Source: Candidatus Lokiarchaeum ossiferum | GTDB taxonomy: Archaea > Asgardarchaeota > Lokiarchaeia > Sigyniarchaeales > Promethearchaeaceae | Assembly: GCA_025839675.1 (NCBI GenBank) | Contig: CP104013.1 | Coordinates: 1,020,001 to 1,052,000 of the forward strand | Length of the DNA stretch: 32,000 bases | Direction of reading: 5' to 3' | In this document: positions 6,371-30,440 of the stretch, one piece after another | Position numbering within the stretch: the stretch's first letter is position 1 | How the letters are laid out: each line of letters opens with the position of its first letter | The notes under the pieces: generated by a model | The model's database searches: none | What the model was told of the DNA's origin: nothing | The model's input: the letters and a program-made list of their open reading frames with translations, nothing else | Made by a program: the position numbers and the translations under genes

Positions 6371-7177
6371 ATGGGAAATTTCACGATGAACAGTAGCTCA
6401 GAAAAAACACCGACGGGAATTATTGGATTGGATGATGCCTTAAATGGAGGAATGCCAAAAGGTACAGTGTGCACAATTTCGGGTGGTCCCGGGTGCGGAA
6501 AAACAATTCTTGCTGCAGAATTCTTATATGAGGGAATAACAAAATTTGGAGATCCGGGTATTTATGTGTCTTTGGGGGAATCTAAAGACGAATTTTTATC
6601 AAACACCAAACCTTTTGGATGGGATTTTGCAAGTTTAGAGCGAGAAGGAAAGTTCAAATTTGTAGACTTTTCTTTTGAACGTTTAGTAAATATTAATGTG
6701 TGGTCCAAACAATCGAGTGATTATGATTCACCCAGTTTTCCACTAGATGGTTTAACTTTGGAAGAACAAACTTATATCAATATGATTCAAAATTTTGTGG
6801 GGACTATTATCGATTCAATCTCATTAATTGAAGCAAAGCGAATTGTTATAGATCCAATCAGTTCTTTGCGATTATTATTTCCAACCGAATTCATCAGCCG
6901 ACGAGAATTTTTACGAATTTTCACAATATTACGAGAATCAAAAACCACTGCAATGGTTCTTTCAGAGTTGCCCAAAGAAGAAGGGTTTTCATTAGAAGAA
7001 TTTGTGGGGAGTGGAGTTATTCGAGTCAATTACCGCAGAGGTGAAAGTGGTTCAATGAATATGGCAAGAACGTTAACGATTTTCAAAATGCGAGGAACAG
7101 CATTCAACGAAAAAGCTTTAAGTATGCGGATTACCTCAAGCGGTATTGAAATTTTGGGAGAAAGTTTAGGGTTTTGA
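6371..7177 (+). CDS. Single-domain KaiC/RecA-superfamily ATPase
   Basis: TGIIGLDDALNGGMPKGTVCTISGGPGCGKTILAAEFLYEG (Walker A), RIVIDPISSL (Walker B-like) and a FKMRGT tail are typical of archaeal KaiC-like/ArlH-like proteins. Confidence 0.85.
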   Translation: MGNFTMNSSSEKTPTGIIGLDDALNGGMPKGTVCTISGGPGCGKTILAAEFLYEGITKFGDPGIYVSLGESKDEFLSNTKPFGWDFASLEREGKFKFVDFSFERLVNINVWSKQSSDYDSPSFPLDGLTLEEQTYINMIQNFVGTIIDSISLIEAKRIVIDPISSLRLLFPTEFISRREFLRIFTILRESKTTAMVLSELPKEEGFSLEEFVGSGVIRVNYRRGESGSMNMARTLTIFKMRGTAFNEKALSMRITSSGIEILGESLGF

Positions 7178-7189
7178 ACGATATTTTCC

Positions 7190-7197
7190 TTTTTTTT
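7190..7197 (+). terminator. Oligo-T tract downstream of the KaiC-like gene (candidate archaeal terminator)
   Basis: A T8 run lies 13 nt after the stop at 7177, between convergent genes. Archaeal RNA polymerase is known to terminate at oligo-T. No experimental support. Confidence 0.3.
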
Positions 7198-7221
7198 CAA
7201 TTTTAAGTAAAATTAAATTTT

Positions 7222-8073
7222 CTATCTGAAAAAGATAAGTTCCAGAATTTGAAATAATAAATTTCCGCCTAGCGATGTAACCACTACCCCTAGCAGAAAA
7301 AGTGTTATCAAAGGAACCATCGGGCTAATCCAAATTTCTTGCAATCCCAATTTATGAAAATCCATGTAAATTTCTTTCATTTCTTCATGAGTATATTCAT
7401 CTTCATAACTTAGATCAAAAATAGCTTCCCAGGATTCATCATCTTCATTATAATCTTCGAGTAATTTTACAAACTTGTAATCAACAAGATTTTCAACAGA
7501 AATTCGTCTCCCTAACAAAAATAAAAGCAATTTCTTTCCTCGTGATAAATGAGAAAATTCTTGAAACCATGTGGTGGAGGATTTTGAATTTTTTAATACT
7601 TTTTTATACAAAAAATAATTGGATACTCCAAGATAGCATAGAAAAAGAGCAAAAATGAGAAAAGTATTTGTTAAAACAGCAAAAATGGAGGGTGCAATAT
7701 ATAAATTCACACGAGAATAGTGCACCAAAGGAGAATGAAAAGGAAAAATCAAAGCAATGATAAAAATTCCAATTAAATCTGCAGGTCCCATTAAAAAAGT
7801 TCCACCAAAAATTTTTGGGATCATGCAAATGCCAATAAATATTATTGCGACAATCAAATTAATAATAAGAGATAACCAATAATAATTAGGAACGAATATA
7901 AAACCAAGAATATGCAATCCGATTCCAATTGTTCCGCCAATATACCAAATCCAATCATAGACCAAACGTTCTTTGATATCTTGATAGGTTGCAACAGTTA
8001 ACACTAAGAAACACACAGAAAATTGAATCCAATAAAGAATATTCAGAGTTAGCATATCTTCCAACACCATCAT
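7222..8073 (-). CDS. A24-family aspartyl prepilin/preflagellin peptidase-like membrane protein (FlaK/PibD-like) with an acidic soluble insert
   Basis: Polytopic membrane protein. A first Asp context (TYQDIKERLVYD) sits in TM1 and a second (FLMGPADLIG) resembles the GxGD motif. An insert of about 90 aa (KKVLKNS...LEDYNEDDESWEAIFDLSYEDEYTHEEMKEIYMDF) precedes the last TM, as in FlaK. Confidence 0.7.
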   Translation of the reverse strand: MMVLEDMLTLNILYWIQFSVCFLVLTVATYQDIKERLVYDWIWYIGGTIGIGLHILGFIFVPNYYWLSLIINLIVAIIFIGICMIPKIFGGTFLMGPADLIGIFIIALIFPFHSPLVHYSRVNLYIAPSIFAVLTNTFLIFALFLCYLGVSNYFLYKKVLKNSKSSTTWFQEFSHLSRGKKLLLFLLGRRISVENLVDYKFVKLLEDYNEDDESWEAIFDLSYEDEYTHEEMKEIYMDFHKLGLQEIWISPMVPLITLFLLGVVVTSLGGNLLFQILELIFFR

Positions 8074-8079
8074 ATGAAA

Positions 8080-9423
8080 TTATTCGTTTTTATCCATAGC
8101 CAGAGAATTTCGCGACTCGAAAGAAAGCCGTTTATCCAACTTCTCAATTAATTCACCTAAAGTTTTGCCGGTGACATTTTGGCTGAGAAAAGCAACCGAA
8201 GATACCCCATATTTAAGAATATTGACTGCTTTTACAACTAAAGCCATATTCGTTTTGGTATGTATCACAGAATAATCCATTTCACCAAAACCAGGTGTTT
8301 CTTTTAAAATGGACTGTTGATTTTTAACAAGGTTGATAATATGAGAAATATCATCCAAATCCATATCTGCAGTGGCTTTTTGGCTGATTACGACATTATC
8401 ATCGTTTAGAAGAAAAATGGCACTTTTTGCTTGATCTTTAATTACATCATTGCAAAAATCTTCTATGGAATTACCTACTTTTGATAGATCATTCAAGATA
8501 ATTTGCATTGATCTAAATAGAGTGTGAATTAGTTCGGGTTGAATCGAAGTGAATATTGTTTTGATCCCATAGTCATTATCCAAGATCTGTTTGATTTCCA
8601 AGAATTGTTTTGCCTTCTCTTGATTTGTTCCAGCAAGTAAATCAATCTTATGGCAAAAAGCATAGATTGTTGCATTTGCCGCGGTGGAATTTTTGGCATT
8701 TATAATACTATCCAAATTTCCAAGAACCTTTTCTCGCTCTTCTTCCCAATTTTTTACATCAAAAATATATATTACGATATCAGATTCTTCAAAAGCGATC
8801 ATTCGTTCAAAACTATTCTGAGGAGAAACATATGATTCAAATTCTTGGCCAGAAGAATCCACAATACCTACTTCTGCATCGAGCCATGAATACACAAAAT
8901 GGGCTAATCCACGAGTCGGTTCTGGTGCAGCTTGTCCAAGTAATATGCTAGGATCTACACCATCAAAGAATGCTTTTTTAATACACGTTTTTCCTGCTGA
9001 AGGAAATCCAATAAACAATAATTTTCGAGAAGCTTGTTGTTGATAAAATAGTTTGGCGAATTCTGAAAAAGTCAGAGCCCGATCTCGTTTATTCCGATTA
9101 TAAAATGATTCTAATTGATCGGCTAATAAACCATAAAATTCTTTCACAGTATTGGTCTCATCAGCAGCTAATATTAACACAATCAATTCAATTTCATTGG
9201 TACCATAGATATGTTTTGTATTTACCAAAATAATTTTGTCATTATACTTTAATTCTAATACACCCTCGTCTTCACTATCCGTTCCAGTGATAATATTTAC
9301 GATCTTTTGGATTAAACCACGTGATATATTGAATTCTTTCGGATAAGAACTATCTAAAAATCCTTTGAACTTGTTCGAGGGAGGTGTTTCTTTTACAGTA
9401 ATTAATGCAAGACCTAAGGGCAT
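8080..9423 (-). CDS. Three-domain small GTPase: N-terminal longin-like alpha/beta domain, Rag/Gtr1-like GTPase, C-terminal roadblock domain
   Basis: G1 is GFPSAGKT (8986-9009). G3 is VDSSGQE. G4 is HKID (8641-8652), the HKxD variant typical of Rag/Gtr1. VIYIFDVKN, IYAFCHKIDLL and TSIQPE parallel RagA LIYVFDVES, IFCLVHKMDLV and TSIWDE (recalled from memory). The C-terminal ~120 aa (AKSAIFLLNDDNVVISQ...MALVVKAVN) are roadblock-like. The start is moved to ATG 9423 (MPLGLALI); the track's TTG at 9528 adds 35 hydrophobic, low-quality residues. Confidence 0.8.
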   Translation of the reverse strand: MPLGLALITVKETPPSNKFKGFLDSSYPKEFNISRGLIQKIVNIITGTDSEDEGVLELKYNDKIILVNTKHIYGTNEIELIVLILAADETNTVKEFYGLLADQLESFYNRNKRDRALTFSEFAKLFYQQQASRKLLFIGFPSAGKTCIKKAFFDGVDPSILLGQAAPEPTRGLAHFVYSWLDAEVGIVDSSGQEFESYVSPQNSFERMIAFEESDIVIYIFDVKNWEEEREKVLGNLDSIINAKNSTAANATIYAFCHKIDLLAGTNQEKAKQFLEIKQILDNDYGIKTIFTSIQPELIHTLFRSMQIILNDLSKVGNSIEDFCNDVIKDQAKSAIFLLNDDNVVISQKATADMDLDDISHIINLVKNQQSILKETPGFGEMDYSVIHTKTNMALVVKAVNILKYGVSSVAFLSQNVTGKTLGELIEKLDKRLSFESRNSLAMDKNE

Positions 9424-9734
9424 ACTAAGGTTGTATCGAAAAATTATAAATATAAAATTATGGTTGGAAAGTTGTTTTAAAGAAATTCCAAGAAAGTTTC
9501 CAACAAAACTAAAATAAAACCACGTCAATTCAAAAATTAAATTTTATTTACTGTCATTTTTTCTTGGTAAAATGAAAATAGGAAAAACTGTTAAACTTTT
9601 AACCATAAACTAAAATATTAACATAAGTGATTGATTATTTGAATAAATGAATGTCTTCACAAATATCTAAAGCGCAATAGATAGACATCAAGAAATTTCT
9701 TATTTTCAATTTTAACTATTTTAAGGGTATTCTC

Positions 9735-10925
9735 ATGAAAAAGAATTATTCGATTATTCCAAAATTATTAGCTAAAGATACAAGATTAGCAAGATATGCC
9801 CTATATTCATTTGCAAGACAATATAAAGCCAAAAGAATTGATCGAAGACTATATCGAGGTAATGCAGGGAAGGTGGCATTACTCTATTTTCGAATTACCC
9901 CACTTTGCAACTTGCATTGTGTTATGTGTGGTCAAAGAGGAGATAAAGGGATATTAAAAGGTAAGTTTGCGGCAGAAGAAGCAAAAACCATAGTCCCAGT
10001 ACAACGGTATAAAGAACTCATAGATGAAATTAAAGGACATCATCCAGCATTATATTTTTGGGGAGGAGAACCATTTATGTACCCTGATTTTATGGAATTA
10101 ATTCAATATGCTGTCAAAAATAAATGTCTTGCATCTGTGAACACAAATGGCACATTCTTAGCCAAACACGCAGAGCAAATCGTTAGAGACGAGTGGCCAG
10201 CATTATTTGTATCATTAGATGGCTTTGAAGATATCAATGATGAAATTCGAGGAAAAGGATCGTATAGAAGGGTTGTTGATGGTTTTGCAGCAATCAATGC
10301 AGAAAAGAAGAAACAAGGTAAACACCTCCCTCATATGGGCATTGTCACAACGGTTAGTAATAAAAACTATCTTTATTTAGACAAATTAGCAGAAGCAGCC
10401 AAAAATTTTGGCTTATCATGGCACATTATTAATTTAGGAACATATACCAATGATAAAATTGTGGAAACCCATAAAAAAGAACTTCGCGAAAAATTGGGTG
10501 TTGAGAGTCGCTGCTTGGAGGCCTATAATACGGGATACAACGAAGGTATTGATGGAGATAAATTCAACATAATTCTTGAAAAAATCCATGCAATGAAAAA
10601 TGGATATCCTATTATTACGGTTCCAGCCATTAATCCGAAGAAAATTACTGAGTACTACGCAAATCCAGAAGTTGTTGTCAGGAAAAATTGCCCCGTACCA
10701 TGGTCGCAAGCAAACATTGACTATAATGGTAATGTTCATTTTTGCGCAGATTATAATGAATATAAAATAGGAAATATCAAAGAAAACTCGTTCAACGAAA
10801 TTTTTACAGGAGAAAGGGCAAAAAAATTCAGGAAAGAATTAAAAAACAGCCCTGATGGGATTTTCCGGGGATGTTTAAGATGTTATCAAAACATGCTCTT
10901 TGGAGAACGTGTTATAGGATATTAA
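9735..10925 (+). CDS. Radical SAM enzyme with a C-terminal SPASM/twitch-type auxiliary cluster domain
   Basis: CNLHCVMCGQ (CxxxCxxC), FWGGEPF (GGE motif), and C-terminal cysteines in CPVPWSQANIDYNGNVHFCADY...GCLRCYQN. Confidence 0.85.
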   Translation: MKKNYSIIPKLLAKDTRLARYALYSFARQYKAKRIDRRLYRGNAGKVALLYFRITPLCNLHCVMCGQRGDKGILKGKFAAEEAKTIVPVQRYKELIDEIKGHHPALYFWGGEPFMYPDFMELIQYAVKNKCLASVNTNGTFLAKHAEQIVRDEWPALFVSLDGFEDINDEIRGKGSYRRVVDGFAAINAEKKKQGKHLPHMGIVTTVSNKNYLYLDKLAEAAKNFGLSWHIINLGTYTNDKIVETHKKELREKLGVESRCLEAYNTGYNEGIDGDKFNIILEKIHAMKNGYPIITVPAINPKKITEYYANPEVVVRKNCPVPWSQANIDYNGNVHFCADYNEYKIGNIKENSFNEIFTGERAKKFRKELKNSPDGIFRGCLRCYQNMLFGERVIGY

Positions 10926-10993
10926 TGCAATAAATTTAATTCTTTTTTCCTAAGGTAGATCCTAACAAATTTACCAAGAAATTTTTTTCACCC

Positions 10994-11659
10994 TTAATCG
11001 AATATAATAAAAGGTGATTTATATTCACAAATCAGATATCTTAATTCTTTATTAAGAGTTTTCATGTTATCTCCCATAATTTTTACAGTACGTCCCATTC
11101 CTGCATTTATTTGATCCAACTTGGCATTAATTTCAGCCATCGAAATTGGAGGAATTGTTTGATTTGAAAAATCTACATTAACCGATTCCATAGAAAGAGG
11201 TTGTGTAGGAGTTGAAGATGATGAATTTGTAATAGGACGCATCAAAGGGGGTGCAGGCATTGGAGGCCTCATTGTGGTAGATTCTTGAGATAAACGATCT
11301 AATTGTAAAGGAGTTACATTTGATGTGGCAGGTGATTGGGATTGTGGAGTTGAAGCAGAAGCAGAAAGATTCGAAATTGGGGTTTGTATGGGTGGTGACA
11401 CACTTTGAGGGGAAGTATCTTTTTTTGGAGCCATTTGTGCAAGGAGATTCGGACTAATTTGAGCATAGTTTGTCTCTCCATATTTTAGATCATAATCATC
11501 TGGATGACGAATTTTCATGTGGCTAACAAGAAAATCTCGCTTATCAAACCCGGTTCCACAAAATTCACAAGTATATTTCTTCTTTTTCTTCGCATACAAC
11601 TTCTTAACTTTAGATGCAATTCGAGTTTTAATTTCATCATCAGTTAAATCGTTTTCCAT
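10994..11659 (-). CDS. C2H2 zinc-finger protein with a long S/T/P/Q-rich disordered region and a C-terminal helix
   Basis: YTCEFCGTGFDKRDFLVSHMKIRH fits Y-x-C-x2-C-x3-F-x5-L-x2-H-x4-H exactly (11504-11575). A lysine-rich stretch (KKKKK) lies just upstream. The central ~110 aa are low complexity. Confidence 0.75.
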   Translation of the reverse strand: MENDLTDDEIKTRIASKVKKLYAKKKKKYTCEFCGTGFDKRDFLVSHMKIRHPDDYDLKYGETNYAQISPNLLAQMAPKKDTSPQSVSPPIQTPISNLSASASTPQSQSPATSNVTPLQLDRLSQESTTMRPPMPAPPLMRPITNSSSSTPTQPLSMESVNVDFSNQTIPPISMAEINAKLDQINAGMGRTVKIMGDNMKTLNKELRYLICEYKSPFIIFD

Positions 11660-11702
11660 AAGTAATCATCTCATTTTCAATCAGAGAAAGATGTATCGCA
11701 GA

Positions 11703-12254
11703 TTATAGACTGGAAAATACAAAAGCCATCAGTTCGTTACGCGATGAGCCTTTCCCCATTTTTTCCATGAAGACCATTAATTTAAGTTGGGTATATAGCT
11801 TTTCATAATCATCGACAGAATCATTTGTCCCAGAAATCAATGTCATTAACATTGGATCCGTCTTGGATGTATGGGAAAGTATGAATTGTATGCACATTTT
11901 TATTTGTTTTAAGACAGATTTTTCCAACTCTGTACATGCCGGTAAGAGATATGAGGTGTCAGGCATATAAGACATCGGTTGTTCAACTCGTACTTGTTCT
12001 GGAGGGGGAGTTGGAGGTTCTTGAACGGGAGGTTCATAGGTATCTGGAGGAGGTTGTGCATTTACATCTTTCCATCGATCCAGAATACTATTGAGATTTT
12101 GATTATTTTGACGTTTTGTTGTGGTGCGTTTCCTGGTATTTTCTGCTTTAGAACTTAACATACGCAACTTATCTTCGAGGGATTCCAGTTCACTCATCAA
12201 TAATTGCTTATTTTCCCGTGATTTTTGCAGACCAGTTATTTTTTTTGACATCAT
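11703..12254 (-). CDS. Hypothetical protein: N-terminal coiled coil, basic stretch, poly-proline linker, C-terminal helical domain
   Basis: ATG-ATG start. Heptad-like LMSELESLEDKLRMLSS. PPPDTYEPPVQEPPTPPPEQ lies at 11997-12056. The C-terminal ~90 aa look folded and helical. No family recognised. Confidence 0.55.
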   Translation of the reverse strand: MMSKKITGLQKSRENKQLLMSELESLEDKLRMLSSKAENTRKRTTTKRQNNQNLNSILDRWKDVNAQPPPDTYEPPVQEPPTPPPEQVRVEQPMSYMPDTSYLLPACTELEKSVLKQIKMCIQFILSHTSKTDPMLMTLISGTNDSVDDYEKLYTQLKLMVFMEKMGKGSSRNELMAFVFSSL

Positions 12255-12282
12255 AGCACACCGTATAAGAGAGTAGAAGATT

Positions 12283-13044
12283 TTATCGTTTTTTATTCAT
12301 CATCATAGACATAAAACCTGCGAGCCATGCAGAATTTCCTTGATCATCGTTTGTCGGTTGCATACCCCCTCCAAACATTTTCGGTTCAAATAAGTATTGC
12401 AATAACTCATATTCGTGTTGAAATTTATCAAGTTTTTTAATTAATAAATCTAAGTATTCCTTGGACCCTTTTTCATAAGTAGAAAGTTTTTCTTCGTTTT
12501 CATTATCATTTTTCTTCAAAAGATTTGTTAGAAGAAGTGTAGTAACTGCATCTTGTCCACCCGCCATACCTGCAGCATTAGCAGCACTAGCAATCCCACC
12601 CATTCCATTAGACTTAGTACCAGCCGAATTACCTGTAGAATCCCCAGTAGGTAAAACAGAACCACTATCTCCACCACTGGCTAAACTTCCTCCACGACGA
12701 TTGAATAAATCCACAAACATATTCATATTCTTGTTCAAGCTTTCCATAGTAGAATGGACTTCATTGATAGAATCAACTGTTTTTTCAATTTTTGTGAGCA
12801 TTGGTCCTGTTGCTGCATTTGAATTATTTACTGCTCCAGAGGTTGATTGAGAATTAGTTTGAGCTTGGGCTTGGGCGATCTGTTGTGCCATAGAGTTAGC
12901 AGCAGTATTTGTGCTACCTTGTGCTTGGGGCTTGTTTTTCAACAAAGCCGCTTTTACTTGATCCTTTACAGAGCTTCCAGCACCTTGGTCTTTACCTTTC
13001 AGCATAGTTTTGAGGCCCTGTACGTTTTGGGATTGCTCAGCCAT
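12283..13044 (-). CDS. Hypothetical low-complexity (Q/A/G/S/N-rich) protein with two helical segments and a C-terminal amphipathic tail
   Basis: ATG at 13044 (MAEQSQ); the track's GTG at 13056 adds 4 aa. Long Q/A and G/S tracts flank the helices KIEKTVDSINEVHSTMESLNKNMNMFVDLF and KEYLDLLIKKLDKFQHEYELLQYLF. The tail is WLAGFMSMMMNKKR. Confidence 0.55.
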   Translation of the reverse strand: MAEQSQNVQGLKTMLKGKDQGAGSSVKDQVKAALLKNKPQAQGSTNTAANSMAQQIAQAQAQTNSQSTSGAVNNSNAATGPMLTKIEKTVDSINEVHSTMESLNKNMNMFVDLFNRRGGSLASGGDSGSVLPTGDSTGNSAGTKSNGMGGIASAANAAGMAGGQDAVTTLLLTNLLKKNDNENEEKLSTYEKGSKEYLDLLIKKLDKFQHEYELLQYLFEPKMFGGGMQPTNDDQGNSAWLAGFMSMMMNKKR

Positions 13045-13742
13045 TGAAATTAACACCGGATGTTATATTTTTTGAGATTATGCAAATCTAAACGATTTAT
13101 CTATATTACAGCATGTAATATCTCAATAATATATCTTAATCCTTCACTTTTTACTAATAGAGAGGAATAATCTACACTATTTGTATCTGCATTATAAGAA
13201 AAATTCCAAAAAAGAATCATATAAGAAACATTATGTGTTTTTACATCAAATCTAACAAAAGATAGTTGGAGTTTATATCCGACGCATACAATCCCATCTA
13301 TTGCATTCATTAAACAGGTTTACTTTAGAAATATTCGACGATTTTTTCCAAAAATAGTTCTATAAATATGATTGCTTTTTTGGTATACATAAGAACTATC
13401 ATCGAAGGAAAAAAAAGTGCAGAAATATTCCAAACTTTTCAAGTCGCAGGAAGCGAAGAAACATGATGTCCTTCGCTTAAATGAACTTCTTATGAGATAT
13501 GAAGAAGCTCCGATTGATTTAATTGAAAAAACTATAAAACGAAAGCTCGTCTAGTATTTTTTTTCATTTCATTATCTTTTTTTTATGCTTGTTTTGCAAT
13601 ATTGTCTTTTTATTCTCAGAAATACAATAATTCATAAAGTCGATTTTTGATCATCCGAGAATTCCGAGATGTAAGAGAAGCGAAACAGTTTTTAACTTCT
13701 CAGTAAAATTACTAGTAAAAACCTTTTCAAAGTTGATCAAAA

Positions 13743-16068: not shown

Positions 16069-17463
16069 TTATTTGACCATGAAGTAAAAACGTGTGCCCA
16101 ATCGGAATGATTTATCAATTTTGGCCATTTTCCGCTCCACCAGGAAATCAAGCGCTTCTTTCACGCGAAATTCAGTCCAACCCAATTTGGTCATGATTTC
16201 TTCTTTTGTCAGAACCCCGGTGGTTTGAGCAAATTTCAATAAACGAGAAGGATCTTCAGTCAATTCTAAAGGATGGAATAATACCATATAATATCCCGTT
16301 GGAAGCTTTTGTACTTCAGAAATCAGCCCACTTTTGACCATTTTTTTAACAATTTTGACAAATTTTTTCATAGATAAATTCCAATCAGGATAATCTTGGG
16401 ATATTTCAGTATATAAAGCAGCCATGGGTAATTGGACTTCTGCAACTTCTTTTAGTTCGGCACCCTTCATTAAGACATATGTACGAATTTGATTTTCAAT
16501 TTCTTTATTCTTCTGCTTCCCTTTAAGACCAGCATGTAACTTACGAATACTAGTTTGTAAATCTTCAGCAAGTTCCTCAGCATGAACACCATTTTCATGA
16601 TAAACGCGAAGTAGAACGGTTCCATGATCTTTATGACAATTCATTTGATATTCAATTAACTCTTTTGGGACACCTTGATCATGGATAACAAAAGATCGAG
16701 ACGTAGTAAATCCCTTCTTTTTCTCATCAGTAATTTTCTCATCAAAAAGTTCATAGCTGGTAAATAATCCAACGATGCTTTGATCCAACATCTTGGGATC
16801 GGAAGAATCAAAGTTCAAATCCAAACTTTCAGTTGCTTGAACCATGTTGCTACTTTTCACATTAGCAATTAAATTTTGCAATATATTGAGCTTCATTTGT
16901 TCTGTTCGATCTATTTTTTGCTGTTCTAAAGCATTTTCCATGTGTTCTAATTCATCATCAGCATATTTTTCAAGAAAAATTTGAGTCGTAGGGCCTATTT
17001 CAACAGGCAATAAAGGCTGAGCTTTAATTGCAAACCCTCGAAGAATCATTATACCTTTACCCGCATCAATCGCACTTTTAACTTCTGTCCCAACATCATA
17101 TATATTACCCAAGAGACCATCCTTGATGCTTGCTGTCCAATTCCCAGGTGTAATCGCCAGATTCTTTTCAGAAATGCCAAATGTGATCTCTTCAGCGTGG
17201 GATAAATTATATGGATATAAATCGACTGTATCATTTTGACTGAGAATTCCTGAGAGGTATTTATCAACTTCCAAGAGTGGAATGTCATTATGAGAAGAAT
17301 CCTCCACAATTTCAAGAATTTTTACAATAAATGAATAGGTTTTCGATCGAATTGTGGAAATTGCAATATAAGTTTGACCAGAAGAAATATTCGGAGTTGA
17401 TTCAGAGCAATGAAGAATTGCTTGCTTCCGAGTTTGAGGGCTAAGTTTTACTTTCATTTTCAT
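16069..17463 (-). CDS. CDC48-N-like (double-psi barrel/beta-clam) domain, a central alpha/beta region and C-terminal tandem winged-helix domains; last gene of the E1-JAMM operon
   Basis: The N-terminal ~175 aa (16939-17463) end in QPLLPVEIGPTTQIFLEK, paralleling VAT/CDC48-N ...PSKVPVEIGEETKIEIREE (recalled). The C-terminus (about 16072-16461) has two WH-like units: FVKIVKKMVKSGLISEVQKLPTGYYMVLF and VLTKEEIMTKLGWTEFRVKEALDFLVERKMAKIDKSFRLGTRFYF. The second strongly recalls EAP30/Vps22-type WH sequences. Confidence 0.6.
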   Translation of the reverse strand: MKMKVKLSPQTRKQAILHCSESTPNISSGQTYIAISTIRSKTYSFIVKILEIVEDSSHNDIPLLEVDKYLSGILSQNDTVDLYPYNLSHAEEITFGISEKNLAITPGNWTASIKDGLLGNIYDVGTEVKSAIDAGKGIMILRGFAIKAQPLLPVEIGPTTQIFLEKYADDELEHMENALEQQKIDRTEQMKLNILQNLIANVKSSNMVQATESLDLNFDSSDPKMLDQSIVGLFTSYELFDEKITDEKKKGFTTSRSFVIHDQGVPKELIEYQMNCHKDHGTVLLRVYHENGVHAEELAEDLQTSIRKLHAGLKGKQKNKEIENQIRTYVLMKGAELKEVAEVQLPMAALYTEISQDYPDWNLSMKKFVKIVKKMVKSGLISEVQKLPTGYYMVLFHPLELTEDPSRLLKFAQTTGVLTKEEIMTKLGWTEFRVKEALDFLVERKMAKIDKSFRLGTRFYFMVK

Positions 17464-17508
17464 TCACAGCTGTCTTTGTTAAAAAATATAGATTCAGAAT
17501 TTATAATT

Positions 17509-18942
17509 TTATTGTTGGATCATTTGGATGATCTGAGAAACTTCATCTCGTTTCTCAAAATTTCCTCGAATGTTGTAAATATCTTGAAGCACATATAAGA
17601 TTTCACAAGATTCTATGGCTTTTCCAGAAAAGATTAGATATTTTGCGCGCTTAAACATAGATTGCATGATATTGTCATCTTGCTGGAATATTTGATCATG
17701 ATTTGGAAAATATTCAGCAGCTAACGGTGAAAGTCCATCTAAAGTGTTTTTAAATGCATTGATCTTATCAATAAAAGAAGGAATATGACGATTCATAACA
17801 TTTAACATCATAGATAATCCTGGATAAGGTAATTGGATAGGAGCAGGAGCAATAATTTCTAAATTACGTGGGGTTTTTCCTTCAAATATACATCTTGATA
17901 CAGATTGAATCATTAAATCCATAACCTCTGCTTTTATTTTTGCAATCATATCTTCTTGAATTTCTGCTTTCTGAGAATTCAAAATTTGGTGAAAACTAAA
18001 ATATATATCACCTTGCAATTGAATTTCTTTATTTGAAGACATTTTTTTGGAAATATTAGTATTTGAACAAGAGAGATCTATGAAAATAGAAGATTTTTTT
18101 TTAAACATTCGTTTCAAGGTATTTTGGGGCAAATTTCCGAGAGAATGTGAAGATTTAAGCTTAATAACTTCATTTTCAAAGAGTTCCTTTGATGTTTCTA
18201 AAGGGGGAATCCCGCGCTTACTTTGATGATCTACATATCGTTTTCGTTTTTTGGTGCTTTCGACAAGAAAACTAAATTGTCCATGGCTCCAAATATGTTC
18301 AAAATTTCCCATGAGGTGTTTTAATAAGACTTGATTAATCATACCTGAGATCGGTATCATCAGATCGATAGAAAGGTGACAATAAGTGTTTATACTATTG
18401 AAATGTTCAATCGGAGATATTTCTTCGGTCATTTCGATTTCATTCGTGGATTTTTCTTCCGACGATAACTGAAACCATCGAGTTTTATTCTGTTCATCAT
18501 CTTCCGAGGAATTGCTATTTGTGACTGCACTTATCATCTTTGGATAGTAGCGTGCTAAATTTTGTAAAGTTCTATCATCTACGCTAGAATGGAAGATATC
18601 CGCTGGATGAGAGTGATAAATACCAATCATCCCCACCCCATGAGGAAGGGAAGAACTAAGTTCTTGAACTTCTCGAGGATCGGGTGCCGCACCAATATAA
18701 GTCTGAAGCTGATATCGTTGACAGGCAACGGCTGTGAGAACGATTAAATCGCCTTCAGGATTTTCTCTCCCGATTAACCACCCATAGATTTCTTTTGGAG
18801 AAGATAAAGCATGGTTTTTAATAAAATCAAGTATCCATGGCGCAATAATCTTTTTTGGACCATCCTTACGAGTTATAATCTTTTTTTCCAAGTTTTTTTG
18901 GCGGTCCCATTCTTCTTCACCCATAATTTCTCTTTCTGACAT
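17509..18942 (-). CDS. JAMM/MPN+ metalloprotease (Rpn11/JAB1-like isopeptidase) with a C-terminal extension of about 330 aa and unknown fold
   Basis: Glu motif PKEIYGWLIGRE. The complete H-x-H-x7-S-x2-D motif is HSHPADIFHSSVDD (18574-18615). The rest of the 477-aa protein has no motif I recognise. Confidence 0.9.
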   Translation of the reverse strand: MSEREIMGEEEWDRQKNLEKKIITRKDGPKKIIAPWILDFIKNHALSSPKEIYGWLIGRENPEGDLIVLTAVACQRYQLQTYIGAAPDPREVQELSSSLPHGVGMIGIYHSHPADIFHSSVDDRTLQNLARYYPKMISAVTNSNSSEDDEQNKTRWFQLSSEEKSTNEIEMTEEISPIEHFNSINTYCHLSIDLMIPISGMINQVLLKHLMGNFEHIWSHGQFSFLVESTKKRKRYVDHQSKRGIPPLETSKELFENEVIKLKSSHSLGNLPQNTLKRMFKKKSSIFIDLSCSNTNISKKMSSNKEIQLQGDIYFSFHQILNSQKAEIQEDMIAKIKAEVMDLMIQSVSRCIFEGKTPRNLEIIAPAPIQLPYPGLSMMLNVMNRHIPSFIDKINAFKNTLDGLSPLAAEYFPNHDQIFQQDDNIMQSMFKRAKYLIFSGKAIESCEILYVLQDIYNIRGNFEKRDEVSQIIQMIQQ

Positions 18943-18951
18943 TATTTCACC

Positions 18952-19728
18952 TTATTCTAAATCGGAACATGCAGGACATTTTGGATCTCTCGAAGTAATA
19001 AAATTTCGAAATTCACCCGTTAAAGCATTATAGGTTTGATAATCTACCAACGTTCCAAGATTTAACATATATTTTAATGCTTCTTGTACCTGCAACGAAG
19101 CAATAATTGCCATTGTTGTAGGTAATGAAGCAGTACATGCTTCTCCCCTCTCCTTTTTTTCATTCGTTCCTTTCAAACGAGCAGTGCACATCATGCAAGC
19201 ACTTTTACCGGGAAAAATAGGATGAACATTTCCTGAGAGAGCAGAACGTGATACACCTGCATCAATTAATAATTTTTTATGATTGATGCATTTCTGATTA
19301 CAAAAACTCCGAGCAGGATAATTATCAAGCCCCATTAAAACCAAATCAGATTTACTCACTGCTTCGTCAAATTGGTCATCAATACCCCACATCATAATAT
19401 CCCCATGAACTGCGATAATATTAACATCAGGATTGATTTCAATTAAACGCTGTTCAACGACTTTGACTTTGGGAACACCTATATCAGCTTCCATGAAACC
19501 AACACGATTCAAATTTACTGCTTCTACAATGTCATAATCAAAAATATAAATTGTTCCTATTCCACACCGAGCGAGCATTTCAGAAGAGATGATTCCCAAT
19601 CCCCCTACCCCAGCAATGGTAACAGATTTTTGTCTTAAGGACTCCCAAGAGATATCGTAACCAAATTGCCTTATTGCTTTTAAGCGAGTATATCTATCTT
19701 CTTTTTTATCCGATATTTGAGTTTCCAA
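18952..19728 (-). CDS. E1-like adenylating/activating enzyme, UBA5-like (ThiF/MoeB fold, four Zn cysteines, catalytic Cys loop)
   Basis: GVGGLGIISSEMLARCGIGTIYIFDYDIVEAVNLNR (nucleotide-binding block). GVSRSALSGNVHPIFPGKSACMMC plus KCPAC give the Cys4 zinc site. GEACTASLPTTMAIIASLQVQEALKYMLNLGT carries a Cys at 19135-19137 that aligns with the UBA5 catalytic Cys context [16 protein letters not shown] (recalled from memory). Confidence 0.9.
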   Translation of the reverse strand: METQISDKKEDRYTRLKAIRQFGYDISWESLRQKSVTIAGVGGLGIISSEMLARCGIGTIYIFDYDIVEAVNLNRVGFMEADIGVPKVKVVEQRLIEINPDVNIIAVHGDIMMWGIDDQFDEAVSKSDLVLMGLDNYPARSFCNQKCINHKKLLIDAGVSRSALSGNVHPIFPGKSACMMCTARLKGTNEKKERGEACTASLPTTMAIIASLQVQEALKYMLNLGTLVDYQTYNALTGEFRNFITSRDPKCPACSDLE

Positions 19729-20789: not shown

Positions 20790-20830
20790 TTTTGAATTAA
20801 AAAAAATGATTTTCTCTCTTTTTTTGTGAA

Positions 20831-21922
20831 TTAAGAAACCTCTTGCCGAATATCGAATAAACTAACCCATTGATAATAAACTTGATAACATTCAGGACAG
20901 AAAATCACTGCCCTGGTCACCAATTGATTATTCTTCACCTTATAAGACCCATCTTCTTGATCGAAATTCTTGAGAATGTTCTCCGATTTGCAGCGAGGAC
21001 AAACATTAATATCTTGAAAATCAATGAAACGAAAATCAGGATTGAGAATTTTTTCCACCTTATCCTTTTCTTTCTGCATTTGTACAATTTTGTCCATCTC
21101 TTGCATGCCTTCATCATCTGCATGAATAGATTCGGTACTTTCTGAATCAATTTTTCCCAGTTCCCGAATTATCTGCCCATCTTTGATGATTAAAGTCCGA
21201 TCCGCAATTTTTCGGACTTCTGGGTTGTGAGTGACTATCACAATAGATTTATCCGGATTTTTTTGAATGAACTGTCTAAAAATGTTCATAATTTTTTCTG
21301 ACGAGATAGAATCAATATTACCCGTAGGTTCATCGGCCAAAATAATAGTGGGATTATTTGCAAATGCCATTGCAATTGCCACTCGCTGTTTTTCCCCACC
21401 TGATAGCGTAAAAGGACGATGATGTGCACGATCTTCTAACCCGATTTCTTTAATGAGCTCATGAACTCGAGTTCGTTTATACTCATTGCTCTTCTTCGCA
21501 ATAGTCATAGGCAATTCTACATTTCCTTCTGCGGTCAAACTGGGAATAAGGTTAAAAAATTGAAAGACTATACCAATTTCATTTTGCAAAATTTGCTGCA
21601 CTCCTTCATCCTTCATACGAGTAACATCAAACCCACGAATGAACACATGCCCTGCACTGGCTTGATCCATCCCAGATATGACGTTTAAAAGAGTTGTTTT
21701 TCCTGATCCTGAAGGACCCATAATCACAACAATCTCTCCAGCGTAAATATTCATATTGACTCCCTTAAGGGCGACTACTTCCAAATTACCTTGTTGGAAG
21801 ATGCGAAAGACATTTTGACAACTAATGTTCACTTGTCGTTGTTTTAAAGGGAGACTCTTATCATCGGACGCATTTATAAAGCCTTCATCCATTTTAGATG
21901 CTTCAGTTTCATTTTTTATCAT
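20831..21922 (-). CDS. ABC transporter ATP-binding protein (MacB/LolD-type) with a C-terminal extension of about 110 aa ending in a zinc ribbon; copy 1
   Basis: Walker A GPSGSGKTT, Q-loop, signature LSGGEKQRVAIA, Walker B ILADEPTGNID, H-loop VTHN. The tail has CPRC...x33...CPEC (20888-21001). Confidence 0.95.
   Translation of the reverse strand: MIKNETEASKMDEGFINASDDKSLPLKQRQVNISCQNVFRIFQQGNLEVVALKGVNMNIYAGEIVVIMGPSGSGKTTLLNVISGMDQASAGHVFIRGFDVTRMKDEGVQQILQNEIGIVFQFFNLIPSLTAEGNVELPMTIAKKSNEYKRTRVHELIKEIGLEDRAHHRPFTLSGGEKQRVAIAMAFANNPTIILADEPTGNIDSISSEKIMNIFRQFIQKNPDKSIVIVTHNPEVRKIADRTLIIKDGQIIRELGKIDSESTESIHADDEGMQEMDKIVQMQKEKDKVEKILNPDFRFIDFQDINVCPRCKSENILKNFDQEDGSYKVKNNQLVTRAVIFCPECYQVYYQWVSLFDIRQEVS
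20835..21825. repeat. Direct repeat copy A (991 bp, 100% identical to 30445-31435)
   Basis: I compared the two copies block by block by eye and every 60-nt line is identical at an offset of 9610. The first mismatches are at 20834/30444 and 21826/31436. Confidence 0.9.
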
Positions 21923-21943: not shown

Positions 21944-24900
21944 TTAAAATTGATGGAAATAGTCGGTATATTTCCTTTTTGACTCCAAATAATAGAGAAG
22001 GAGATATATCAGAAAGGAAAGTAGTGGAATAATCGCAATAATCCCAACTAAATCAATTGCGTTCCAAAAAATAGGGGATCTATATGATGAACCTTCAAAA
22101 TTGACCAATTTAATTATTTTGGAGAGTACAATTCCAAAAATGGAACCACTGATGATTCCATTAAATATTGGAATGAAGAATATGACAAAAATTTCCATAA
22201 ATGTCAGCGCTAATAACCCTTTCTTCCCCACACCTCGAGCTAGTAGTGTTCCATGATAATGCTTGTCCATTTTCCGTAAGTAAACCAATAGTATTCCAAT
22301 TCCAATCGCCATCAGAATTCCAATGATGATGAATTCAAAATAAAAAATTACATATGTTCCTGAGGAAAATTGTATTATATCGAGAGCCATATCATTCCAC
22401 TGATCTTGATATATACTGACATAAGTATGACCATTAAAATTATCTGTGACTTCACTGATCTTGTTAGATAGTCCACTTTGATCCAAAGTGCAATTTTCAT
22501 TCAAATTCATTAAAGTAAAAAATTGCAAACTATGCAAATATGAAGAATTCGTATTGACCGAACTTAGATCTATAAGCATGAACTCTTCTTCATTATAATA
22601 ACTTGAACTTTTAGAAGTGTAAAAACCCGGAAGAGTGTCAATTACATCAAATATAATTGCTACAATCTCGTCCAATTGCATTCGATTTGTTAATGGGTCA
22701 TAATAATAATGATTAATTGAAGTTTTCTCATAAAGGGATTTTAGATGAGCTTTTTGATATTGTGAATTAACGATTACACCTGGTAATTTTCCAGATGTAA
22801 GATTATTATTATACAGAGTCAAATTACGTAATCTATTATAAAGATTCTTTTCTGGTTCAAGTTTTTCTGGTTCTGATATAAGATCTAGATATTTGGAAAC
22901 ATTTGTAATATATTTCGTTGTTTCATGATACACTCTAAAATAAGCGGGACTTCCAGAATCTACAAACGTTGTGACAGCTTTGGTACTCATGTTTTGATTG
23001 TCAGTTAATGTCAAATTTAATAACTGATCTTCCATTGAATCAATATCTTCTGCACAGCGGATTTTTGAGGAAGAATCAAGCCCATTTTCTTCGTTAATTG
23101 GAATTTGAGCAAAACTAATCTTACAATCAGCTCCAATTTTTAAGTTACTATCAATAATTTCTGTTCTTACGGATGTCTGAAAATAAATATTAGAGAAAGT
23201 CAAGAGGGAGACAAAAATGCCTATAAGATACATAGTCATTATATAAGGCTTTTTTTTTATTATATTCAAGGCAACTAATTTTGATTTACTTTTTGAATAA
23301 ATAGAAACGATTATCTTTGATAACCGTCCTAAACGACTAGGTTTTTCATAAGCGATTAGGTGAATTATTCCAACCACCATTAAAACAGGTGAAAGTATGG
23401 ATAGTACTGCAAACGGCTGGCTGAAAGGAGAAATTAGTTCAGAAATCCAGATTAATGTATCATTGGTTCCTTTTCTCCCATTATCAACGATTAAGTAAAA
23501 GATCAGGGGAAAAAGAGAGAATAATATTAAAATAATGCCAAATCTATGAACTTTCCCCTTTTCATTCGAAGAAACAGTATCTTTGTATAAATTCTGATGT
23601 TTTAGAATTCTATCAATTATTAATGGTTTTTCTTTATTGCTTGATAACCTGCGAGCTGTTTCAGCGGGTTTTTTTTTTGATTTTTCAATATCATCAAGAA
23701 AATATGGGTTTTTTTCTTCAATATTGCCAGAAAAGAAGGGTAGATCATTTAAAGTAACATTCTTGGTTTTTGAACTGTTAAATAAAGTTATTTCGTCATA
23801 TGTGATATCAAATGATTCTGAATTTACCTTACTAAGTAGTTCTTTTGTGGATACATTCTTTAGATATACCAATGAAAAAACATTGGCAACTTGGGTTATA
23901 ATGATTCCGGCGAGAAATGTCAAAAGGACACTATTAAATGAAAAAAAAATAGGTAAATTTAGTGAAACTTGATTCCAGCTAACAAGACTTAATAAAGTAG
24001 TACGAAATGAATAAAATACGATAATCCCACAGAAACAGGCAAAAATAGATGAAGAAACTCCGATAAAAATTCCTTCAATAATCAATTGAATAGAAAGCAT
24101 TTTTGTTGAAGCACCTTTACTTTTCAAGAGAAGAAATTCTTCAATCCGATTTTTCTGCTCAACTTTTAAGGCAAATGCTCCAATAAAAATCGCAAAGATA
24201 AGAATGGGAAGAACAATTAACTGAAGACTGATCCGGATATCCTTCAATTGAGTTGAAAATTCGCATAAAGCGAGATAGAGAGAATTATCAAAGTCCATAT
24301 AATCAGGTAAAGTAAGAGAAAATTCGGATCCAGCTTCTCCAATATTGTTTGTGATTGTAGAGAGGAAATTAAAAGAGATAGAACTTCTATCTGAAATTAA
24401 TGAACACCCTCGAATGGGAAAAAAGTTGATTATTGAAAAATCAACGTTGATTCGAGCTAAAACATCTTCTAATGGATTGGATGAAATGTTTTTTGATGTA
24501 TTCAAGAATGTAAACAGAGGAGGATTGATTTTTGGATCTTCTAAAGAATTTTCTGATACAGGTGAAATTTTCTGGGTTAGTTCATCGAAGTGATAGCCAA
24601 AAAAATAATTGTCTTGTGAAAATTTTAAATGGGCCAATTTAGATGCATAAATACCGACAACTTCAAATTTTGAAAAATTTAGAGTGTGTACCTCATCTCG
24701 TAATGTTAATTGATCATCATCACCGTCATAAAGCGATGAATAAGCACAAATTTCAATCATTTGATCTTTTCCAATAGATAAATTCATCTTTTGTGCAAAA
24801 TTGATATCAATTAAAATTTGATCCATAGAAGTGGGAAAGGTACCATTTAATATTTTAAAATATCGATTGAAGCGCGCAGATTCATAAAAATTTGTCGAAT

Positions 24901-25315
24901 AGGCATTGTATTGCAATTGAGAAGAAAAATATTTATTCAGAACTGGTCTTTGGGAAGTTGGGATTTGGGTATAATTTTTGAAGAAAGCAACTCTACGATA
25001 ATCTTGGATGATCTCAAAGGAATATTGTTCAATAATATCAATATGCTTGTTAAATTCAGAGAATGAAGGGATAAAATTTTCAATTTTTTCACTTTCCAAG
25101 GTATAAGTTGAATTATTATCTAAAGTTCGATAAAAAATGTTAAAATCATCAATTTGTCCAAAGGATTTTTGAAGGGTTTCTTGTTTATATGAATCTGTAA
25201 ATATATAGATACCAGAAACCATACTTAAGGCGATCCCTAATCCGATAACAATTAACACACTTTTCTTTATACTTTTTCTTCCTTGTTTGAAATAATATTT
25301 TAAACGATTGTTCAT
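21944..25315 (-). CDS. Very large ABC transporter permease with two FtsX/MacB-type 4-TM modules, each preceded by a large extracytoplasmic domain
   Basis: An N-terminal TM is followed by a ~330-aa N-x-S/T-rich ectodomain. The first FtsX block is EEFLLLKSKGASTKMLSIQLIIEG. A basic cytoplasmic linker follows, then a second TM and ectodomain. The second FtsX block is LLARGVGKKGLLALTFMEIF. The gene lies 21 nt upstream of the ATPase. Confidence 0.85.
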   Translation of the reverse strand: MNNRLKYYFKQGRKSIKKSVLIVIGLGIALSMVSGIYIFTDSYKQETLQKSFGQIDDFNIFYRTLDNNSTYTLESEKIENFIPSFSEFNKHIDIIEQYSFEIIQDYRRVAFFKNYTQIPTSQRPVLNKYFSSQLQYNAYSTNFYESARFNRYFKILNGTFPTSMDQILIDINFAQKMNLSIGKDQMIEICAYSSLYDGDDDQLTLRDEVHTLNFSKFEVVGIYASKLAHLKFSQDNYFFGYHFDELTQKISPVSENSLEDPKINPPLFTFLNTSKNISSNPLEDVLARINVDFSIINFFPIRGCSLISDRSSISFNFLSTITNNIGEAGSEFSLTLPDYMDFDNSLYLALCEFSTQLKDIRISLQLIVLPILIFAIFIGAFALKVEQKNRIEEFLLLKSKGASTKMLSIQLIIEGIFIGVSSSIFACFCGIIVFYSFRTTLLSLVSWNQVSLNLPIFFSFNSVLLTFLAGIIITQVANVFSLVYLKNVSTKELLSKVNSESFDITYDEITLFNSSKTKNVTLNDLPFFSGNIEEKNPYFLDDIEKSKKKPAETARRLSSNKEKPLIIDRILKHQNLYKDTVSSNEKGKVHRFGIILILFSLFPLIFYLIVDNGRKGTNDTLIWISELISPFSQPFAVLSILSPVLMVVGIIHLIAYEKPSRLGRLSKIIVSIYSKSKSKLVALNIIKKKPYIMTMYLIGIFVSLLTFSNIYFQTSVRTEIIDSNLKIGADCKISFAQIPINEENGLDSSSKIRCAEDIDSMEDQLLNLTLTDNQNMSTKAVTTFVDSGSPAYFRVYHETTKYITNVSKYLDLISEPEKLEPEKNLYNRLRNLTLYNNNLTSGKLPGVIVNSQYQKAHLKSLYEKTSINHYYYDPLTNRMQLDEIVAIIFDVIDTLPGFYTSKSSSYYNEEEFMLIDLSSVNTNSSYLHSLQFFTLMNLNENCTLDQSGLSNKISEVTDNFNGHTYVSIYQDQWNDMALDIIQFSSGTYVIFYFEFIIIGILMAIGIGILLVYLRKMDKHYHGTLLARGVGKKGLLALTFMEIFVIFFIPIFNGIISGSIFGIVLSKIIKLVNFEGSSYRSPIFWNAIDLVGIIAIIPLLSFLIYLLLYYLESKRKYTDYFHQF

Positions 25316-30365: not shown

Positions 30366-30440
30366 TGAGAACAAGAATCACAATGTTTCACCAGATTAAA
30401 ATACATCCAAAAAAAAAATAATATTAATTATATTTGTAGA

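Follow-up and report, generated by a model that had tools for sequence, protein, structure and literature searches.

A gene on the minus strand (8080–9423) of a 32,000-nucleotide stretch of Candidatus Lokiarchaeum ossiferum DNA (contig CP104013.1, positions 1,020,001 to 1,052,000; this whole stretch is called the window below) encodes a 447-aa protein in which a predicted longin-fold domain, a Rag/Gtr-type G domain and a predicted roadblock domain follow one another in a single chain, the order of the published longin-GTPase-roadblock (LGR) class. In our preferred reading, to which we give a probability of about 0.6, it is a Rag/Gtr-type switch that dimerises through its roadblock domain and carries its longin as a non-catalytic platform. 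Rag GTPases count, together with the longin and roadblock proteins that regulate them, among the eukaryotic signature proteins, and Asgard relatives of these GTPases and regulators serve to reconstruct the origin of eukaryotic membrane and nutrient signalling. The features of the gene are the following, all on the minus strand:

8080–9423, minus strand: gene of the LGR protein, complete with stop codon (open reading frame (ORF) listing and translation, 447 aa; 38 homologs)
9444–9457, minus strand: A/T-rich TATA-like stretch TTTTATATTTATAA, 21–34 nt upstream of the ATG (read from the sequence)
9043–9423, minus strand: predicted N-terminal longin-fold domain, residues 1–127 (AlphaFold model of the domain alone, Foldseek)
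8485–9033, minus strand: Rag/Gtr-type G domain, residues 131–313 (Pfam Gtr1_RagA, family profile against PDB)
8986–9009, minus strand: G1/P-loop GFPSAGKT, residues 139–146 (homolog alignment)
8914–8916, minus strand: G2, switch I threonine T170 in PEPTRG (invariant in 38/38 homologs)
8845–8859, minus strand: G3/switch II DSSGQ, residues 189–193 (alignment)
8641–8652, minus strand: G4 HKID, residues 258–261, the Rag-type HKxD replacing NKxD (invariant in 38/38 homologs)
8542–8550, minus strand: G5 TSI, residues 292–294 (aligned with TSI of RagA/Gtr1)
8086–8469, minus strand: predicted C-terminal roadblock domain, residues 319–446 (AlphaFold topology, Foldseek)

All five G motifs were found at the expected spacing, and those besides HKID were nearly invariant in the 38 homologs. 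The HKID itself, whose coordinates had been given exactly in the original prediction (made from the sequence alone), aligned with the HKMD of RagA/Gtr1, and Q193, the glutamine at the catalytic position, aligned with Q66 of RagA. The Pfam family Gtr1_RagA matched residues 134–353 with 47.1 bits (cut-off 22, E 2.6e-12). A single-sequence search of the PDB ranked Schizosaccharomyces pombe Gtr1 and human RagA first, and a profile built from the 38 homologs matched 22 distinct Rag/Gtr sequences there (E 1e-16 to 5e-6), several of these alignments extending into the C-terminal domain (profile 128–422 against Gtr1 4–300). A lipid-modification motif is absent from both ends of the protein: the N-terminus, MPLG, has no Gly2 and the C-terminus, ...LAMDKNE, has no Cys. 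Eukaryotic RagGtr sequences have been reported to be nested among Asgard RagGtr sequences (Vargova et al., 10.1101/2024.02.28.582541). Together with this literature, the profile and fold rankings support the assignment of the G domain to the Rag/Gtr type, so that the earlier call was borne out by Pfam, the family profile and Foldseek alike.

For the fold of the whole protein, an AlphaFold2 model of the full-length chain was built on the 38-sequence alignment (mean predicted local distance difference test score (pLDDT) 80, predicted template modelling score (pTM) 0.58). It contains three units: residues 1–127 with the order beta-beta-alpha-beta-beta-beta-alpha-alpha, a Ras-like alpha/beta unit at residues 131–313, and residues 319–446 with the order alpha-beta-beta-alpha-beta-beta-beta-alpha, which is that of roadblock domains. 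The first 35 matches of this model in a Foldseek search of the PDB were only full-length RagA, RagC, Gtr1 and Gtr2 chains and 8yl2, a Lokiarchaeal RagA-like GTPase solved by crystallography. Since about 320 columns were aligned with a target-normalised template modelling (TM) score of about 0.7 (E down to 8e-18), the G domain and the C-terminal domain superpose jointly on Rags. This supports, at the level of the predicted fold, a C-terminal roadblock domain placed relative to the G domain as in RagA/Gtr1, in agreement with the Rag arrangement that had been proposed for it.

The N-terminal domain was also modelled separately (residues 1–128, with homologs), giving a pLDDT of 90.9, a pTM of 0.85 and the same secondary structure as in the full-length model: strands at 2–13 and 18–27, a helix at 35–47, strands at 54–60, 63–71 and 77–85, and helices at 87–108 and 112–127, the last of which, with the conserved residues R115, F119 and F126, leads into the G domain. 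This order agrees with the longin topology of Tran et al. (PMC10933270), in which an N-terminal helix is lacking and an extra C-terminal one is present. In a Foldseek search with this domain, the best matches were chain C of GATOR1 complexes (E 2.6e-4 to 2e-3), 8yqg, a dimeric longin taken from a roadblock-longin protein of Lokiarchaea (TM 0.52–0.60, root-mean-square deviation (rmsd) 3.3–4.5 Å), the Lst4 longin (TM 0.49–0.55) and the longins of C9orf72/SMCR8, DENND1A, Fuzzy/Inturned and VAMP7. These model-based comparisons support a longin fold for residues 1–127, as the original prediction of a longin or related fold had suggested from a beta-alpha pattern. The elements of that pattern lie where they had been placed, with the exception of strand beta2 (KFKGFLDSSY), which had been missed, and the approximately 135 residues counted ahead of the P-loop became about 130.

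The ORF runs from an ATG at 9423 to the stop codon at 8080–8082. Pro2 and Gly4 are invariant, and the start MP[LI]G was found at the same position in 16/16 full-length homologs, with identities down to 33%. A longer ORF started by TTG and reaching 9528 was rejected, as its 35 added residues are not conserved and homologs begin at the ATG-encoded Met. Because the homologs share this Met position and the TTG extension is unconserved, the ATG at 9423 is taken as the true start. The N-terminal approximately 127 residues, conserved from the first residue in 31 homologs, belong on this sequence evidence to the translated product, which is thus one polypeptide from the upstream ATG, as anticipated, rather than one that starts downstream of the N-terminal domain. 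The stretch TTTTATATTTATAA may be an archaeal promoter from which a leaderless or short-leader mRNA is transcribed. All three blocks (N-domain, G domain and C-domain) are kept in homologs down to 33–41% identity, and since they are kept across such distant homologs, chance resemblance is excluded.

The three-domain layout was already known. That GTPases of Lokiarchaea occur fused to longin or roadblock domains was noted in 2016 (PMC4917890), and Tran, Akil, Senju and Robinson (Commun Biol 2024, PMC10933270) predicted the structures of 74 small GTPases of Promethearchaeum syntrophicum MK-D1, labelling proteins in their supplementary alignments as LGR, LG, GR and RG, with WP_147663355.1-LGR and WP_147663503.1-LGR among the LGR examples. 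The tri-domain fusion, for which the earlier reading could not verify a precedent, has thus been reported before (PMC10933270). The MK-D1 LGR and LG proteins share the domain order and the Rag-like G domain with the window protein; the published LGR examples, known only from AlphaFold prediction, are other paralogs. The MK-D1 ortholog of the window protein is WP_147664208.1 (P0029 in our set, approximately 51% identity over residues 1–315), which is labelled LG in the published alignment. Its gene occupies the same genomic position as in the window, convergent on Dus beside a Lactamase_B gene. The MK-D1 protein ends after the G domain without a roadblock, whereas the window protein retains all three domains. 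The window gene is thus a clean full-length example of the published class and leaves the current picture of Asgard GTPases unchanged. A separate observation concerns the start of WP_147664208.1 (L001 3947–4030, CP042905.2), whose annotation places it 11 codons past the conserved first strand. The DNA ahead of the annotated start encodes PLGAVLLENS in the same frame, with an Ile codon where the Met usually stands, so that on this reading of the DNA the MK-D1 protein either uses a non-canonical start or is without strand beta1.

Among known systems, the eukaryotic pairs RagA/B–RagC/D and Gtr1–Gtr2 are the best matches in sequence and structure, yet with only about 17–20% identity. They share with the window protein HKxD, DxxGQ, TSI, a C-terminal roadblock right after the G domain and the lack of a lipid-anchor motif; the window protein differs in its extra N-terminal longin and in having no paired paralog nearby. 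Eukaryotic Rag/Gtr proteins form a heterodimer of two paralogs via their roadblock domains, and to our knowledge the TOR, Ragulator and GATOR context of these heterodimers is absent in archaea. The Asgard proteins LokiRagO (8yl2, a homotetramer) and LokiRagM (8zla/9m28, a monomer) have, like the window protein, a Rag-like G domain and a C-terminal domain. Both were matched by the family profile and by fold, though less closely than the eukaryotic Rags (8yl2, E 3e-14; 8zla, TM 0.28–0.37). In the profile alignments their G domains begin within about 6–20 residues of the chain N-terminus, leaving no room for a longin of approximately 127 residues. The longins of GATOR1 Nprl2/Nprl3, FLCN-FNIP/Lst4, C9orf72-SMCR8 and 8yqg, the best structural matches of residues 1–127, have their fold in common with this domain. 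In the eukaryotic complexes that act as GTPase-activating proteins (GAPs) they are separate proteins in trans, unlike the window longin, which is fused in cis. Bacterial MglA-MglB, a small Ras-like GTPase with a dimer of roadblock fold, offers a conceptual precedent for a GTPase on a roadblock/longin platform, with the difference that MglB is a separate protein and the roadblock of the window protein is fused. The longin-bearing GTPases of MK-D1 lack the switch I arginine involved in MglA catalysis and 'may require GAPs' (PMC10933270); in the window family R171 is not conserved (R/M/V/F/L/I), and MglA chains were not among the PDB matches of the family profile. As to cellular output, the same authors speculated on protrusions and vesicles (PMC10933270).

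A survey of domain architectures, as the original prediction had proposed, sorted the 38 homologs into three classes: LGR (approximately 447 aa, n = 17, including the window protein), LG (approximately 312 aa, n = 15), which stop just after the G domain, and GR (approximately 303 aa, n = 5), which begin at the P-loop. An initial description of the 312-aa class as G domain plus roadblock was rejected, as these sequences consist of longin and G domain and end after the latter. In a neighbour-joining tree of the G domains (rooted with more distant LGR proteins, 500 bootstraps), monophyly of the LG proteins had 100% support, GR together with the LGR group P0013–16 had 83% and the whole ingroup 88%. 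Because the LG clade is nested within the LGR-bearing clade, LGR is, on this tree, the ancestral state in the family, LG and GR having arisen via loss of one flank. This order of events is added here to the published picture: MK-D1 holds a derivative without the roadblock and another clade one without the longin. All LG loci from named genomes (MK-D1 and three Promethearchaeum metagenome-assembled genomes (MAGs)) belong to the genus Promethearchaeum. The natural LGR, LG and GR variants constitute a ready-made deletion series for biochemistry, which is the main value of the gene. Beside these classes stands P0033 (455 aa, encoded on a 3.2-kb metagenome contig), whose N-terminal 190 residues are Toprim-like (PF13155) and joined directly to the G domain and whose P-loop is destroyed (DNDQAGRN); chimeric assembly or disruption of the gene is the probable cause.

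When the N-domain profile was compared with 1.84 billion representative proteins without word filters, 26 clusters were found at E <= 1e-3. The match always begins at the protein N-terminus or within about 20 residues of it, and in 10/10 longer relatives scanned (of the 26 clusters) a Gtr1_RagA G domain follows immediately. The shorter matches that were read continue into the P-loop or end inside the N-domain, fragment-like, and among the relatives examined no complete stand-alone copy of the N-domain was recognised. A second addition to earlier work is thus that the N-domain precedes a Rag-like G domain in each relative examined (10/26 clusters scanned). Among 185,579 species-representative genomes, only ten loci with a close relative were found, and their named sources are Promethearchaeum, Harpocratesius or Promethearchaeota. 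The N-domain family as a whole is equally confined, all its named sources being Lokiarchaeal (Promethearchaeota/Lokiarchaeota). This narrow, lineage-specific spread argues against the fusion as the ancestral state of eukaryotic Rags. The suggestion of an 'ancestral arrangement' therefore holds only inside the small Lokiarchaeal family, where LGR precedes LG and GR; no link of the fusion to the eukaryotic stem was found. One relative stands out by its surroundings: in L007 (5001–10912) four Gtr1_RagA-type GTPase genes (303, 413, 428 and 474+ aa) form a cluster in which two response regulators and a PAS histidine kinase are also encoded, and the GTPase gene at 8682–10016 also bears the N-domain (E 4e-6).

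In the mechanism that we prefer, the protein would cycle between GTP and GDP states and would dimerise through its roadblock domain, by analogy with Rag/Gtr pairs and MglB. A homodimer is probably the more likely form than a heterodimer, since the 32-kb window shows no further member of the family: local hidden Markov models recognised in it no partner paralog and no stand-alone longin or roadblock of this family. The longin would be a non-catalytic platform of the FNIP/Lst4 kind, these being non-catalytic partner longins, and may pair with a second longin and dock partners or regulators near the switch face. A 2025 survey (PMC12290439) recognises the catalytic GAP longins FLCN, NPRL2, SMCR8 and C9orf72 by an arginine finger and by a GP motif immediately ahead of beta2, to which C9orf72 adds a WD motif. 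In the alignment of the window subfamily, the residues before beta2 are K20-G21-[F/I/V], so that the GP motif is lacking, no WD was found at the end of beta1, and no conserved Arg was found between alpha1 and alpha2, the finger region of NPRL2/FLCN/SMCR8; only two arginines of the N-domain are near-invariant, R35 where alpha1 begins and R115 in the final helix. Because the GP and WD signatures are missing and the alignment shows no candidate for the finger arginine between these helices, the window longin appears unlike an arginine-finger GAP, and on these sequence grounds a non-catalytic platform is ranked above a GAP acting in cis, its main rival.

Several observations weigh against this preferred reading. 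The longin and roadblock assignments rest on predicted folds, since the isolated flanking domains lack sequence-level similarity: two N-domain profiles (A4 and A5) searched against PDB and Pfam returned noise only and no longin-family match, and the C-domain profile alone found no roadblock sequence among its PDB matches. The Foldseek E-values of the N-domain are modest (2.6e-4 to about 5e-2), with LOV/PAS domains interleaved among the matches (TM about 0.33, rmsd about 8–20 Å). The pTM of the full-length model leaves the inter-domain arrangement uncertain, and both dimerisation and any contact between longin and G domain are steps that we infer. Moreover, sister LGR subfamilies (P0041–P0058, alignment A5) carry [F/V/L]xWDxxxG[P/S/T] at the beta1-beta2 turn, with W and G invariant, a motif resembling the YWDNILGP of C9orf72 (W33-D34...G38-P39; sequence verified in PDB 6lt0_C). 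The window-subfamily N-domain is clearly homologous to these WD/GP-bearing N-domains (hhalign probability 99.6%), so that the motif, whose retention in related subfamilies and loss in the window subfamily is the third point added here, may leave room for a past or present catalytic or regulatory role of the N-domain. In addition, six G-domain positions of the P-loop, alpha1 and switch II (F140, K149, Y178, F195, Y198 and E206) show at least 90% conservation among the 31 longin-bearing members but differ in the five GR members. This pattern hints at the footprint of a longin contact at the nucleotide face, a weak hint because the five GR proteins form one clade and are not independent.

The last two of these observations also favour the main rival, according to which the N-terminal longin is a built-in GAP or guanine nucleotide exchange factor, working in cis or in trans across the roadblock dimer and thereby combining the logic of Rag and GATOR1/FLCN in one chain. 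It draws further on the closest structures of the N-domain, which are GAP-complex longins for Rag/Arf GTPases (GATOR1, Lst4/FNIP-type and C9orf72/SMCR8), and on the published remark on a need for GAPs quoted above for MK-D1. The sister-subfamily N-domain and the C9orf72 longin were aligned in register across beta1, beta2 and alpha1, but this hhalign match is weak (probability 13%, E 2e-3) and the window-subfamily profile gave no match to C9orf72 (E 0.71). With the WD and GP motifs lost from the window subfamily and no conserved Arg in its finger region, with the co-conservation depending on five related sequences, and with GR members that naturally work in the absence of the longin, as LG members do in that of the roadblock, we consider a self-regulating protein unlikely, although it is the competitor to be taken most seriously. 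A more specific scheme, in which the longin shares its stock with those of C9orf72-SMCR8, FLCN-FNIP and GATOR1 and in which paired longins sit over the nucleotide pockets of a roadblock homodimer and set the GTPase rate, draws on the C9orf72-like WDxxxGP motif kept by the sister LGR subfamilies but is speculative and distinctly unlikely; if true, LGR would be a single-chain archaeal circuit of Rag and longin-GAP and a tractable model for the assembly of eukaryotic Rag regulation.

The LOV/PAS structures among the Foldseek matches (E about 6e-3 to 5e-2), together with the placement of longins in a wider PAS/GAF-like fold group (PMC4917890), would allow the N-domain to be a PAS/LOV/GAF-like small-molecule sensor and the protein a ligand-gated GTPase. 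This is scarcely credible given that LOV/PAS structures superpose with TM 0.31–0.37 and rmsd of about 8–20 Å, as against TM 0.49–0.60 and rmsd 3.3–5 Å for longins, that the topology is without the N-terminal PAS elements and ends in two longin helices, and that the N-domain had no Pfam PAS/GAF match. An Arf-like or other Ras-superfamily G domain with HKxD by coincidence, for which a partial Pfam Arf match (25.8 bits) speaks, is an extremely improbable explanation as well: Gtr1_RagA scores higher and spans the full domain, the best Arf-like PDB match of the family profile is Arl2 (E 0.075), many orders of magnitude behind the Rag/Gtr sequences (to 1e-16), and the top 35 Foldseek matches are all of Rag/Gtr type with the roadblock co-aligned. 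A further alternative regards the GTPase as the switch of a module with an A24-type signal peptidase, a KaiC-like ATPase and three uncharacterised proteins, which might, by analogy with the control of type IV pili by MglA/MglB, govern a pilus-like or surface structure. In the window and in the relatives' loci L004 and L006, the Arc_PepC_II/A24 peptidase gene lies 6–25 nt after the LGR gene, and the vicinity also includes a KaiC-like ATPase gene and homologs of orf257, orf183 and orf221. However, in Harpocratesius, in L005 and L017 and in all Promethearchaeum genomes, neither the peptidase and KaiC nor the three ORFs accompany the LGR or LG gene, and synteny there is limited to the unrelated Dus gene. 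The pattern may thus reflect gene order retained by descent instead of an operon with a function, a pilin or archaellin gene was not recognised, and we regard such a module as very unlikely. The neighbouring genes in the window are:

7222–8073, minus strand: A24-type (prepilin/preflagellin-peptidase-like) membrane protein, 283 aa, 6 nt after the LGR stop
6371–7177, convergent orientation: KaiC-like ATPase gene, after the peptidase gene
9735–10925, plus strand: radical-SAM/SPASM gene, between the LGR gene and the three upstream ORFs
10994–11659: orf221, 221 aa, C2H2 zinc finger, upstream of the LGR gene
11703–12254: orf183, uncharacterised, 183 aa, upstream of the LGR gene
12283–13056: orf257, uncharacterised, 257 aa, upstream of the LGR gene

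The peptidase gene matched Pfam Arc_PepC_II, the C-terminal domain of archaeal A24 peptidases (1.2e-11), and, weakly, Peptidase_A24 (0.0024), and judging from the gene layout it is probably co-transcribed with the LGR gene. The six-gene neighbourhood (window 6371–13056) recurs in L004 (LGR 65% identical) and L006 (42% identical) and is absent from at least five other genomes, including Harpocratesius, Promethearchaeum, L005 and L017, so that we regard it as a lead rather than a finding. The position of the LGR gene, convergent on a Dus gene beside Lactamase_B genes, is conserved in the window, MK-D1, Harpocratesius and other MAGs. The radical-SAM/SPASM insertion was seen in the window only and not in L004 or L006. 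Further along the window (16069–19728, minus strand), a ThiF (E1-like) gene, a gene for a 477-aa Prok-JAB protein and one for a 464-aa protein without Pfam match were found; in L004 a JAB gene and an approximately 461-aa gene precede the orf263 gene with their order unchanged, so that the synteny apparently extends further. Two genes coding for 363-aa ABC ATPases (20831–21922 and 30441–31532), 9.6 kb apart, share 300 nt at 99% identity (20823–21122 and 30433–30732), and the interval contains two very large genes for FtsX-like permeases of 1123 and 1186 aa (21944–25315 and 25342–28902).

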